From contig CAZJKO010000001.1 in NCBI GenBank assembly GCA_964546995.1, forward strand, positions 8,504-72,503: a stretch of 64,000 nucleotides of DNA, written 5' to 3'. The notes under the pieces are model-generated. The model did not search any database. It was not told the DNA's origin and worked only from the letters and a program-made list of their open reading frames with translations. Shown here piece by piece: positions 37,696-41,798 of this stretch. Each line of letters starts with the position of its first letter. Positions within the stretch are counted from its first letter, which is position 1. This DNA is from an uncultured Muribaculaceae bacterium. Lineage in GTDB: Bacteria > Bacillota_I > Bacilli_A > RF39 > UBA660. The position numbers were made by a program, and so were the translations under genes.

Positions 37696-37724
37696 TTGAA
37701 ATCAGTAGTTAGTTGTGATATTAT
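37696..37724 (+). promoter_or_regulatory. Sigma-A promoter (TTGAAA-17-TGATATTAT) of the TasA-like/SipW locus
   Basis: Canonical -35, 17-nt spacer and extended -10, about 20 nt upstream of the AGGAGG RBS of the first TasA-like gene. Confidence 0.6.
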
Positions 37725-37745
37725 TTCATTATAGGAGGCTATCTT

Positions 37746-38366
37746 ATGGAGAAAACGAATCATCGTACCAAAGAAATTATTTTATCAATTTGTGGCGTTC
37801 TTTTTTTGATTGTTGCTGTCATTAGTACTAGTATGGCTGTATTTGTTTTTAGTGCACAGGGAACAACGGAGAATACCATAACGACGGGTAGTATTACGTT
37901 TGCTTACAACGATGAAAAACCAGAGATTTATATTGTTAATGCTCAACCGATGACGGATGCAGCGGGGAAGAGCATTGTTGCGGTCGATACGGATCAAGGA
38001 ATTATGCAGGGGTATTTTGATTTTTCTGTTTCCGGAGAAGTGGTCGGGAATCTTCCACTTACTTACGAAGTGTACGGTACTCTTGAAGATAATTCTACTA
38101 TGGATTCCGATTATGTTAAAGTTTTTTTAACGGATGGTTCTTCAGAGGTTCCTCTTGCTGGCTACGATGGATCTAGCATTCCTCTTTATGGGTCTTTACC
38201 ACAAGCTACTAGCGATCCTTTAGGAAAGAGACTTTATGTCGATAGTTTTTCGACAGGGAAGATGAGTCAGTCTTTTCGTCTTCGAATTTGGGTTGCGGAT
38301 ACTTATAAAACGGCGGATGTTTCTCGGACTTTTTCGATGCGGGTTCACGTTAAGGCAACAGCATAA
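37746..38366 (+). CDS. TasA/CalY (camelysin, peptidase-M73-like)-family secreted protein, paralog A, with SipW-cognate signal peptide
   Basis: Signal peptide with SxA cleavage context (TSMA|VFVF); mature N-terminus FSAQGTTENTITTGSITF aligns with CalY FSDKEVSNNTFAAGTLDL; shares C-terminal motif FRLRIWV with paralogs B and C. Confidence 0.65.
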   Translation: MEKTNHRTKEIILSICGVLFLIVAVISTSMAVFVFSAQGTTENTITTGSITFAYNDEKPEIYIVNAQPMTDAAGKSIVAVDTDQGIMQGYFDFSVSGEVVGNLPLTYEVYGTLEDNSTMDSDYVKVFLTDGSSEVPLAGYDGSSIPLYGSLPQATSDPLGKRLYVDSFSTGKMSQSFRLRIWVADTYKTADVSRTFSMRVHVKATA

Positions 38367-38463
38367 TCTGTCAAATACTTGGTACTTTTAAAAAAAGCGA
38401 AATATTCCTTGCTTTTTTTTCTTTTTGTATGGTAATATTGTTATTGTAAAGGAGGTTATGAAA

Positions 38464-39171
38464 ATGAATAATAATAACTCGAGAAATATTTTATTATCCG
38501 TATTAGGAGTGGCTATTTTAGTTGTAGCAGTAGTTGGTGTATCGTTCGCTGTATTTCAATTTACTGCACAAGGTACAACGACCAATACATTAAGTACTGC
38601 CTCAATTTCTATGACCTTTAAAGAAAAGACGACAGGTATTACGATTGAGAATGCTATGCCTAAGACAGATGCAACAGGTAGTGTTACATTAACTAAGGGT
38701 GAGTACTTTGACTTTTCTGTTGGTGCTAGTTTAGTTGGAACAACGACGATTCAATACGAAGTAACTGCTGTGAAATCTGCTGATTCTACTTTAAAGGATG
38801 AAGATGTGCATTTATATTTAGAAGAGTCTACTGATGGAGGGACAACCTATACTCCTGCAACGGGATGGACAGCTAATACTGGTAAACCATTTACACCTAG
38901 TACGACGACATTAGTTACTGCTGCTGCTAATATGATGGCTCTTGTTACAGATACATTTACTGTAACAGATGCTACAGAAGCACAAACTCCAGTAAAACAT
39001 TATCGGTTAAGAATGTGGGTTAGTGAAAATGCTGATTTATCTAGTTATGAAGGTACTGATAGCAATAAAACAGATACGACGGAAGATGGAGAACATACCA
39101 TCACATCTGGAATCAACTCATATAAATTCTCTGTTACTGTATTAGTAAATGCAAAACAAGTAGCTGCATAA
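38464..39171 (+). CDS. TasA/CalY-family secreted protein, paralog B
   Basis: Start at ATG 38464 (AAGGAGG RBS); signal VSFA|VFQFTAQGTTTNTLSTASISM; YFDFSV and HYRLRMWV motifs shared with paralog A. Confidence 0.65.
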   Translation: MNNNNSRNILLSVLGVAILVVAVVGVSFAVFQFTAQGTTTNTLSTASISMTFKEKTTGITIENAMPKTDATGSVTLTKGEYFDFSVGASLVGTTTIQYEVTAVKSADSTLKDEDVHLYLEESTDGGTTYTPATGWTANTGKPFTPSTTTLVTAAANMMALVTDTFTVTDATEAQTPVKHYRLRMWVSENADLSSYEGTDSNKTDTTEDGEHTITSGINSYKFSVTVLVNAKQVAA

Positions 39172-39280
39172 GTTGTAAAGTTCAAAAATATCTTGTTTAC
39201 AAGGTATTTTTTTGTTGTCTTACTTATACGTTTTGTGATATTATTAAGTTATAATGAGAATAATAAAATAGGGTGATATA

Positions 39281-39967: not shown

Positions 39968-39988
39968 TTTATAGAGGTGATCTATTAT

Positions 39989-40546
39989 ATGAGACGTAGG
40001 AATTGGTTGTTTATTGTTCTTGGTGGGATTGGATTGTTCTTGTTTATTGTCGGATCTAGTTATGCTTGGTATTTGGTTTTTAATCGGAATACGACACTTC
40101 TTGCTAATTTGGAAATTAAAATTTTGGATCAAGGAAAAGGAGTTTCTATTTTAAATACATCACCAGTCTCTGATTCAGAAGGTAAGGGATACAGTCCTTA
40201 TCTTTTCGATGTGGAGAATAAAGGACGTGGTTTGGGGCGTTACCAGTTGATTTTAGAGGAAGTTCCTTTGGAGGATGTTCATGATGGTTGTTCGTCTAAG
40301 ACGTTATTATCGCGAGATCAACTTCGTTATCAGTTGTTGTTGAACGATGTTCAAATTCAAATTGGATCACTGGATTCATTAAAGAACAGTGTGTTTCTTA
40401 CGAATGATATTAAACTGGGTGAAGCACATCACTACGAATTGCGTGTTTGGTTAGATGAAAAAAAGGACGATACGGATTGGGCAGGAAAACATTATCATTA
40501 TCGTGTTGCTATCAAGACAGTAACTAGCAAAGGAAAAGAGGGATAG
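39989..40546 (+). CDS. TasA/CalY-family secreted protein, divergent paralog C (possible TapA-like accessory)
   Basis: Signal SSYA|WYLVFNRNTTLLANLEI (the NT-hydrophobic-xxG/A-x-L-x-I/L pattern of the family); C-terminal HHYELRVWLDE motif shared with A and B. Confidence 0.55.
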   Translation: MRRRNWLFIVLGGIGLFLFIVGSSYAWYLVFNRNTTLLANLEIKILDQGKGVSILNTSPVSDSEGKGYSPYLFDVENKGRGLGRYQLILEEVPLEDVHDGCSSKTLLSRDQLRYQLLLNDVQIQIGSLDSLKNSVFLTNDIKLGEAHHYELRVWLDEKKDDTDWAGKHYHYRVAIKTVTSKGKEG

Positions 40547-40547
40547 G

Positions 40548-41228
40548 ATGAAACAATTCTTGATTCAGTATCTTCATTTATTTGGATATACGATTTGTGG
40601 ATTGATTTTTGCCTTTGCTTCTTTTTATTTGATTGTTAATTTCTATCATCAAAAAGAATTGCAATCTTACTATGTTATTCAATCTTCGTCTCTTTCTTCT
40701 TTGGAGCAGATTAAAGATAAAATGGCTATTGTTGGAGATAACATTTCTGTTCATCCTAATCATATCAACAATAGTCATGTAGCTCTATTTTTATCGTCTT
40801 TTAAAACTAAACTTCAATCTTGTCAGACGTTTGTACTGAATGAGACGTATTTAGAAATGGAAAAGAAGCAAGCGATTGGGCCTTTAGATGTCGAACATTT
40901 TAGGCAATCATTTCAGAGTAAGGTTCTTAGTCGCTGTCTTATTGAACAATTCTATGGCACGATGGATACGGATTCACTTTCTTCTTTTGCTATTCAAGAT
41001 ATTGTTCCGTATGTTCATTTAATGATTCAAAATTTGTCCTTTAGTACGTCTTATTTGGAAAAGGATTTAATCAACAATAGTAGTTACTTTTTTAATTCTA
41101 AACAGGCTAGAATGACAGTTCATGATAAGACACTTTCTGGATTTCAGACGATTACAGGACTATACAATCAAGCAAGTGATTTGTTAGTAGAGCTTTCTCG
41201 TTGGTATAGGGAACAAGTGGAGGGATAA
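40548..41228 (+). CDS. Hypothetical membrane-anchored protein (N-terminal TM), co-operonic with sipW
   Basis: 226 aa; starts 2 nt after paralog C; no recognisable domain. Confidence 0.5.
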   Translation: MKQFLIQYLHLFGYTICGLIFAFASFYLIVNFYHQKELQSYYVIQSSSLSSLEQIKDKMAIVGDNISVHPNHINNSHVALFLSSFKTKLQSCQTFVLNETYLEMEKKQAIGPLDVEHFRQSFQSKVLSRCLIEQFYGTMDTDSLSSFAIQDIVPYVHLMIQNLSFSTSYLEKDLINNSSYFFNSKQARMTVHDKTLSGFQTITGLYNQASDLLVELSRWYREQVEG

Positions 41229-41231
41229 TCA

Positions 41232-41798
41232 ATGAAAAAGATGTTGAATGGTATTTTTTCGATTCTTAAATTTCTTTTGTGGATTCTTTCGTTTTTTATG
41301 ACCTTATACATTGTCGTTTATATGTATCAACGATTAGAGAAGTCTATACTTACCTCTCTTCCCATTTTGTTTCCGTTTTTCCTAGTTCTTCTTTTCTATC
41401 TTATCAATATTATCTTTCGGCAAAAGTTTGTTCAGAAAAGTATTTTTTACAATATTACTTCTTGTTTGGTTTTTGTGACCATTCTGTTTGTCTGCTATCG
41501 GGCTTTGTTCGATACGAATATGATTTTAAATGAGCGATTGGGATACCATATTAATTTTAATTATTTTGCTGATTTTTTACCACCGATGAAGATTATGTTA
41601 TATGGTCTTTGTGTGGTCAATATTCTGTTTATGTTTTCTTCTTGTGAGCGTACAAAAAAGAATGTTGTCTTGCCTACGGAAGAAGAAAAACCTCGTCAAG
41701 AAGTGATAAAAGCGGAGAATGTTTCTTCGGTTGAATCTAAAAGAACGTCCTATCCTGAAAAGAAGAAAATTTCGAAAAAGAAGCGTAGAAGACATTAA
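41232..41798 (+). CDS. Hypothetical polytopic membrane protein with a basic C-terminal tail
   Basis: 188 aa; about 4 TM; ends KKKISKKKRRRH; tightly linked (4-nt gap) to the preceding gene. Confidence 0.5.
   Translation: MKKMLNGIFSILKFLLWILSFFMTLYIVVYMYQRLEKSILTSLPILFPFFLVLLFYLINIIFRQKFVQKSIFYNITSCLVFVTILFVCYRALFDTNMILNERLGYHINFNYFADFLPPMKIMLYGLCVVNILFMFSSCERTKKNVVLPTEEEKPRQEVIKAENVSSVESKRTSYPEKKKISKKKRRRH

Follow-up and report, generated by a model that had tools for sequence, protein, structure and literature searches.

In the tapA-sipW-tasA system of Bacillus subtilis, a dedicated signal peptidase of the S26B class is encoded together with its substrates. TasA polymerizes by insertion of mature residues 1-11 into the next subunit (PMC9674648), and PMC10269814 reports that Phe at position P2' makes it a substrate of SipW rather than of a LepB-type peptidase. 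The subunits encoded by the sipW-bsaA-bsaB-bsaC locus of Clostridium perfringens are likewise SipW dependent; after strand exchange, an intermolecular isopeptide bond forms through residues N35, E56 and K74 of BsaA, each of which is required for oligomers (PMC11580942). In the growth model proposed for this system, new monomers, still tethered to the membrane, take up the arm of the growing oligomer before SipW releases them (PMC11580942). The subunits of archaeal bundling pili (AbpA) and of other TasA-like donor-strand filaments share a jelly-roll or beta-sandwich body with an N-terminal donor strand, a likeness detectable only by very sensitive comparison (PMC9245690). Here we describe a six-gene locus in a 64,000-nucleotide stretch of DNA (the window; contig CAZJKO010000001.1, positions 8,504 to 72,503) from an uncultured bacterium of the RF39 lineage. 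It comprises three paralogous genes (A, B and C), an S26B signal peptidase gene and two genes for membrane proteins (D and E). At a probability that we put at roughly 0.55, the locus would be a SipW-dependent surface-fiber system (pilus or matrix), similar to TasA and BsaA in action but built from a different, unannotated subunit family.

Three paralogs, a signal peptidase and two membrane proteins

The six genes are co-oriented on the plus strand (37746-41798), with a yabE-like 3D-domain gene (37077-37682) on one side and spoVG (41902-42180) on the other. Gene A (37746-38366; 206 amino acids), the candidate major fiber subunit, has an AGGAGG 8 nucleotides (nt) 5' of its start, and gene B (38458-39171; 237 amino acids) encodes a paralogous subunit. 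The signal peptidase gene follows (39281-39967; 228 amino acids), then gene C (39989-40546; 185 amino acids), a divergent full-length paralog with the ribosome-binding site AGAGGTGA, and genes D (40548-41228; 226 amino acids) and E (41232-41798; 188 amino acids), which encode a bitopic and a small four-segment membrane protein, respectively, both of unknown family. The original prediction, made from the DNA letters and a list of open reading frames (ORFs), had described these six ORFs, and all are present. The peptides it quoted are likewise found in the translations: SMA↓VF, SFA↓VF and SYA↓WY (arrows mark predicted cleavage), YFDFSV, and FRLRIW, YRLRMW and YELRVW. Its starts for A and C (37746 and 39989) hold, whereas 38464, given for B, falls on the second in-frame Met; the best start is the ATG at 38458, directly after an AGGAGG. 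Good ribosome-binding sites precede A, B and C. The intergenic gaps, earlier given as 2-4 nt, measure 1 nt between C and D and 3 nt between D and E, which suggests translational coupling.

Pairwise comparison relates A to B with an E value of 6e-31 and 33% identity. C is a distant match by the same measure (E values of 1e-4 with A and 2e-7 with B), and comparison of the C-family and A/B-family profiles with hhalign gives 98.7% probability (E value 1.8e-16 over 176 columns). On these sequence comparisons, the paralogy of A, B and C is well beyond chance, as had been claimed. Routine searches had been expected to give the three proteins no label, and this was borne out: when the six proteins were scanned against Pfam and NCBIfam, only the peptidase (like the flanking genes) received an assignment, which left A, B, C, D and E without a family. 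A word-indexed search found 27 relatives only, whereas a full hidden Markov model (HMM) scan, covering 1.84 billion cluster representatives (50% identity clusters), returned 5,172 clusters at E ≤ 0.001 and 2,171 at E ≤ 1e-10. When 101 relatives were scanned one by one against Pfam and NCBIfam, recurrent matches were weak (DUF7472, SAG1386_EF1546, DUF3377, FliL and ETRAMP) and looked like transmembrane-segment artefacts, although only those to DUF7472, located in the N-terminal segment (residues 2-53), were checked. Precomputed Pfam annotation, for the relatives in which it was listed, contained no domain for the module, and the few names were "hypothetical" or "unknown".

Among the best 150 relatives, 56 are proteins of 330-1743 amino acids that carry the ~200-amino-acid module at their N-terminus. 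Ten C-terminal extensions were scanned; six had Pfam matches, four of them above the gathering score. The domains above cut-off were Listeria-Bacteroides repeats (Flg_new), Big_2 and BspA-type leucine-rich repeats (LRR), and those below it were CBM_4_9 and DUF4179.

The peptidase, which has membrane segments at its N- and C-terminus, belongs to the S26B (archaeal/endoplasmic reticulum-type, SipW-like) class of signal peptidase I. It scores 104.4 bits against a cut-off of 51.85 with TIGR02228 (archaeal-type signal peptidase I) and 25.6 bits with PF10502, which upholds the earlier claim of a SipW-type enzyme amid the three paralogs. Its Ser, His and Asp motifs (SxSMxP, THR and TKGDxNN) are at least 95% conserved in 61 homologs. 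The Bacillus SipW equivalog model NF046067 gives 95.7 bits against a cut-off of 190; the enzyme is therefore of the same class as SipW, but not an ortholog-level SipW.

D consists of one N-terminal membrane segment and a domain of ~190 amino acids with two invariant Cys, a layout consistent with a domain outside the cell. Alignment of 37 orthologs of each protein shows N31, H34, C92, C130 and Y206 to be invariant in D, and R34, P48, F72, N74, R90 and D94 in E, which also has a conserved loop, RAxFDxNM…GYGIDFNYF, and a variable basic tail. Pfam and NCBIfam scans, and profile searches of PDB sequences, found no relatives of D or E. Each is present in 63 loci, and their single copy and obligate linkage to the peptidase point to machinery rather than subunits.

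A scan of one genome per species yielded 78 loci, all from uncultured gut Bacilli or "Tenericutes" bins and Candidatus Onthousia; ORFs were called in 84 loci and assigned by phmmer. The order yabE-(A/B)x2-7-peptidase-C-D-E recurs in ~60 genomes of uncultured gut Bacilli, and E is usually followed by ksgA-yabG-veg-spoVG. The peptidase adjoins subunit genes in 65 of the 84 loci, and most of the others end at contig ends. The insertion point is common to ~60 related genomes, so that the module is lineage specific and old rather than recently acquired. Recent acquisition was rejected on the grounds of uniform base composition (a G+C content of 0.30-0.39, the same as in the flanks) and lineage-wide synteny, and a tblastn search of plasmid and phage collections with A had no match and thus gave no sign of a mobile origin. 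Of the earlier description "acquired or lineage-specific", only the second half survives. Some genomes also have satellite loci with A/B-type genes, often in long adhesin-like forms, without the peptidase, D or E. By gene content, the pattern is that of one processing and assembly block whose substrates are encoded at several loci.

Cleavage site, N-terminal arm and fold

Protein A has a signal peptide (residues 1-31, …STSMA↓VF), a conserved arm (mature residues 1-19) and a beta-sandwich body. B combines the signal peptide …GVSFA↓VF and an arm motif like that of A (NTLSTASI) with a Thr-rich variable body, while C has no ENTIxTG arm motif. Motif counts were taken over 249 distinct A/B-family proteins. 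In these, position -3 of the cleavage site is Ser in 87%, -2 is Phe or Tyr in 81%, -1 is Ala in 92% and +2 is Phe in 81%, with Ala, Val or Thr at +1, frequencies that support the original prediction of a site like those of SipW substrates. The TasA site, T-W-A↓A-F, matches this consensus in its small residues at -3 and -1, its aromatic residue at -2 and its Phe at P2'. Its signal-peptide residues T-W-A are what we take them to be from the precursor and the TasA-family alignment, and its mature N-terminus, A28-F29, was checked against PDB entry 8aur. TIGR04088, the model for the SipW-cognate signal peptide class that had been put forward as a check, matched none of A, B and C at E ≤ 1; 9 of the 101 relatives touched it, all at E ≥ 0.07.

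A type IV pilin-like reading, in which class III signal peptides would be cut by a prepilin peptidase and the hydrophobic N-terminus would form the core helix of a pilus, can draw on the short charged leader followed by a hydrophobic stretch, and on five of the 101 relatives that touch the archaeal Pilin_N model of Pfam (E ≥ 0.026). Those matches are weak, however, and the family consensus has neither Gly or Ala at -1 before the hydrophobic stretch nor Glu at +5. None of the ~60 loci has a prepilin peptidase, ATPase or platform gene, and the co-encoded peptidase is a Ser/His S26B enzyme. Motif and gene content effectively refute this reading, to which we give almost no weight. Sortase-type pilins were likewise rejected: A, B and C end in …HVKATA, …NAKQVAA and …SKGKEG, with no LPXTG, and there is no sortase in the loci.

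The original prediction went further and placed A, B and C in the TasA/CalY (camelysin) family, an assignment that fails every sequence test applied, whether profile cut-offs, profile-profile comparison over the mature domain or a search of the PDB. Neither PF12389 (Peptidase_M73) nor NF046066 matched A, B or C at E ≤ 1. Among the 101 relatives, two touched PF12389 (E ≥ 0.1) and six NF046066 (E ≥ 0.0013), all far below cut-off. A TasA profile was built from 43 sequences, with mature B. subtilis TasA (residues 28-261) confirmed against 8aur. With hhalign, the A/B profile aligned to it at 35% probability (E value 4e-4) over 61 columns, made up of the signal peptide and ~30 mature residues; the C family gave an E value of 1.6e-3, with signal, arm and first strands collinear with TasA as for A/B. 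Once the signal peptides were trimmed, the A/B comparison yielded 0.4% (E value 0.16), which does not amount to homology of the mature domains. When PDB sequences were searched with the A/B profile HMM, neither TasA nor any other useful match was retrieved. Trp182 is invariant (249/249) and residue 180 is always Arg or Lys (A numbering; FRLRIW, residues 178-182), and in a permissive alignment this strand falls on the invariant E-A-T-Q-W strand of TasA, a match without statistical support. A literature search that paired the host clade with TasA returned nothing useful.

A first AlphaFold model, computed from 28 sequences, was poor (predicted local distance difference test score [pLDDT] 63.5) and was replaced by a model of mature A based on 137 sequences. 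This model is a beta-sandwich with a pLDDT of 77.9 and a predicted template modeling score of 0.76, and a Foldseek search of the PDB with it found nothing significant. The structural support is thus partial: the predicted beta-sandwich is compatible with TasA, without proving kinship.

Within this otherwise good model, residues 1-19 of mature A have pLDDT values below 50. The same arm is among the most conserved parts of the family, with an entropy of 1.64 bits as against 2.10 for the body. Identity between paralogs from the same locus is 54% for arms and 44% for bodies, with the higher value in the arm for 80% of 345 pairs; A and B of the window give 59% and 25%. A conserved arm that has no place in the modeled monomer is what a strand shared between subunits would look like.

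A second pattern involves Asn43 (248/249), Glu or Asp at position 56 (242/249) and Lys75 (187/249), all three of which are present in 179 of the 249 proteins; A itself carries N43, D56 and K75. They occupy mature positions 12, 25 and 44, and the BsaA residues N35, E56 and K74 occupy mature positions 8, 29 and 47 (PMC11580942). The parallel with the BsaA isopeptide triad, drawn from distances to the mature N-terminus, is suggestive.

Arm and trio also bear on whether A, B and C might be processed by the SipW-like enzyme without polymerizing, and serve in soluble or wall-associated form, for example as binding proteins, as variable surface antigens or in a spore coat or crust. The beta-sandwich fold is generic, and the paralog bodies diverge fast, as in antigenic variation. 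Genes related to sporulation lie nearby (spoVT, spoVG, yabP and yabQ, plus yabG in relatives), and TasA was itself first described as spore associated (PMC9674648). Against this, the most conserved stretch is the arm without a place in the monomer fold, the Asn-Glu-Lys pattern parallels that of a proven polymerizing system, and the promoter match 5' of A is sigma-70-like rather than sporulation specific, a weak argument. We consider a non-polymerizing role unlikely.

The module fusions raise another alternative, that of membrane-anchored display, in which the signal anchor would stay uncleaved, the beta-sandwich would serve as a stalk presenting adhesin domains, the short forms would be truncated or decoys, and the peptidase would be a general one. 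The hydrophobic segment of ~21 residues is long enough to span the membrane, many relatives carry large adhesin-like C-terminal extensions, and the small genomes (one closed relative has 1.52 Mb) make a single signal peptidase plausible. At its outer end, however, the segment carries a near-invariant S-[FY]-A↓A-F, which obeys the -3/-1 rule and would be odd in a simple anchor. The short paralogs that consist of the module alone, arrayed in tandem in sets of 2-7, would be stalks with nothing to display, and neither the conserved arm, disordered in the model, nor the tight co-occurrence of D and E with the peptidase is expected. Display is thus improbable in our estimate. Both alternatives account less well than a fiber for the cleavage motif, the orphan arm and the tandem module-only paralogs.

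A candidate fiber mechanism

The surface-fiber idea of the original prediction is retained as the best reading on the strength of cleavage site, arm and Asn-Glu-Lys trio, and the most likely mechanism would run as follows. Sec would export A and B, whose long signal peptides would keep them in the membrane until the S26B enzyme of the locus cleaves after S-[FY]-A, freeing the arm A/V-F-x-[YF]-…-E-N-T-I-x-T-G-T-I. The freed arm would act as a donor beta-strand that enters the beta-sandwich of a neighbor, giving a head-to-tail polymer, and an isopeptide bond between Asn43 and Lys75, catalyzed by Glu/Asp56, may lock the link between subunits. Long relatives encoded elsewhere in the genomes, in which the module is joined to immunoglobulin-like (Ig-like), LRR or repeat domains, could be incorporated as adhesive subunits. 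C, without the arm motif and mostly without a cleavable site, would not leave the membrane; there it would receive the final arm and serve as anchor or terminator of the fiber. D and E, always travelling with the peptidase, would be assembly or anchoring factors.

The role proposed for C draws on its own family. C keeps the body of the fold and not the arm motif: the position equivalent to -1 is Leu in 23 of 55 and Ala in 10 of 55 proteins, an aromatic W-Y-x-F-F belt follows it, and the arm Asn is kept in 18 of 55. A large residue at -1 is incompatible with the specificity of type I signal peptidases, so most C proteins probably stay membrane anchored. In a scheme of the BsaA type, an uncleavable C would end growth and anchor the fiber. 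One satellite locus (L085, 9001-16080), which has a two-component system upstream, lacks the peptidase, D and E. In it, a 1743-amino-acid protein of module and Listeria-Bacteroides repeats precedes a 151-amino-acid membrane protein, which has a thioredoxin-like CxxC motif, and a pair of C-type paralogs. Disulfide chemistry may matter, as there is one conserved Cys in C-type proteins and there are two in D.

Several observations weigh against a fiber of this kind. The mature domains, as described above, have no detectable homology to TasA. Lys75 is missing in 25% of the family, including B of the window, which unlike most relatives has Ser at this position. C of the window retains Ala at -1 (SYA↓WY) and may be cleaved, which makes an anchor role less clear in this genome, and although C is present in ~60 of 65 SipW-bearing loci, it is missing from four that are otherwise complete. 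The peptidase could be the general signal peptidase of the organism rather than a dedicated one. Finally, the genomes with the locus are all metagenome bins.

The likeness to tapA-sipW-tasA lies in an S26B signal peptidase, possibly a dedicated one, encoded with its putative substrates, in the residues of the cleavage site (small at -3 and -1, aromatic at -2, Phe at P2'), and in an N-terminal segment followed by a [NA]-x-[FI]-x-x-G-[TS]-[LI] motif and a beta-sandwich body. In both systems a minor, paralog-like partner (TapA, or C here) may start or anchor the fiber. The differences are as many. Apart from the unrelated mature sequences, the body here is smaller (~155 residues), subunit paralogs occur in tandem sets of 2-7, C is, unlike TapA, a true full-length paralog, D and E have no counterpart, and relatives fuse the module to adhesin domains.

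With the bsa locus, whose subunits are SipW dependent (PMC11580942), as those here would be, the present one shares an N-terminal arm that is disordered and would, as proposed, enter the neighboring subunit, and the similar mature positions of arm Asn, acidic residue and Lys (12/25/44 here, 8/29/47 in BsaA), and the membrane-anchored state of BsaA oligomers fits an anchor role for C. BsaA is recognizably related to TasA (IPR022121), whereas the A/B/C family is not. A quarter of the members here lack Lys75, and the isopeptide bond is a candidate feature. A VWA protein like BsaC and nearby type IV pilus genes are both missing, and D and E are new. AbpA resembles A and B in the proposed combination of beta-sandwich and N-terminal donor strand, but uses a general signal peptidase, has a TapA-like partner (AbpB) and comes from hyperthermophilic archaea. 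The proposed set of a major subunit, adhesin-bearing subunits and a basal terminating or anchoring subunit also recalls sortase-assembled Gram-positive pili, as a functional analogy only; LPXTG and sortase are missing here, and polymerization chemistry and processing enzyme are unrelated.

A more far-reaching proposal is that the locus represents a new class of Gram-positive pilus, widespread in abundant uncultured gut Bacilli. In it, donor-strand polymerization at the base would be gated by the S26B peptidase and locked by Asn-Lys bonds, the shaft would be formed by a new family, and adhesin-fused subunits from satellite loci would confer binding specificity, with an uncleavable C as anchor or terminator and D and E as a platform. 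We offer this as a tentative extension, in which we have distinctly less confidence than in a SipW-dependent fiber as such.

Genomic setting and significance

The coordinate 37696, from which the locus had been counted, is the first position of a sigma-70-like promoter match 5' of gene A (37696-37724, plus strand; TG-extended TTGAAA-17 nt-TATTAT, 10/12 consensus positions). Such matches are equally frequent in the region and in shuffled sequence, so this one is consensus evidence only. A hairpin with a T-tract lies 3' of yabE (37672-37689). On the plus strand, an AU-rich hairpin followed by a U-tract lies 3' of A (38390-38427; -9.5 kcal/mol, z -2.2) and is a possible partial terminator or attenuator; another hairpin and U-tract lie 3' of B (39184-39218; -10.3 kcal/mol, z -2.0), both being weak evidence. 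From the promoter match and these two elements, A and B may be expressed more strongly than the peptidase-C-D-E block.

Downstream of E, spoVG starts after ~100 nt, with no ksgA, yabG or veg in the interval (41799-41901). In relatives, ksgA (RrnaAD), yabG (Peptidase_U57) and veg sit between E and spoVG (13316-15160 in locus L001 and 12198-14053 in L004), so the three genes have been lost or moved in this organism. Elsewhere in the window, gene orientation changes from minus to plus at 11149-12021, followed by dnaA (12021-13409), dnaN (13410-14678) and gyrB (16501-18432), which indicates that the window spans the chromosomal replication origin. The position of gyrA after gyrB is occupied by a large ORF (18448-20928; 826 amino acids), an unscanned candidate, and the six-gene locus lies ~26 kb from dnaA on the leading strand.

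Two RNA elements were also found. A bacterial small signal recognition particle RNA lies at 22078-22164 (RF00169, 60 bits), and a T-box leader (Rfam RF00230, 115 bits) at 34138-34338, immediately 5' of the methionyl-tRNA synthetase gene, metG. Because this leader and the start of the longest metG ORF overlap, metG probably begins downstream of 34338. An ORF of ~210-250 amino acids without a Pfam match lies between mfd and spoVT in the window (32693-33394) and in all relatives inspected (L001, 2467-3219; L004, 3521-4168; L087, 4006-4638). Between metG and tatD there is a small hydrophobic ORF of 59-61 amino acids without a family match (36072-36251 in the window; L087, 7218-7403), which is called as a gene in relatives also.

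The hosts of this locus are common but uncultured gut Bacilli; a single ortholog was seen on 284 contigs. The module defines at least three families that have no Pfam or NCBIfam model, namely the subunit module (with a C-type subfamily), D and E. If the fiber model is true, the donor-strand principle of SipW, TasA and BsaA would extend to a subunit family unrelated to them in sequence, with the addition of two new accessory proteins and of a subunit that may anchor or terminate fibers. The locus would then also offer a concrete test of whether isopeptide-locked strand exchange reaches beyond the BsaA clade, and its relatives would form an extensive repertoire of modular adhesins, by which gut bacteria could attach to host or particles.

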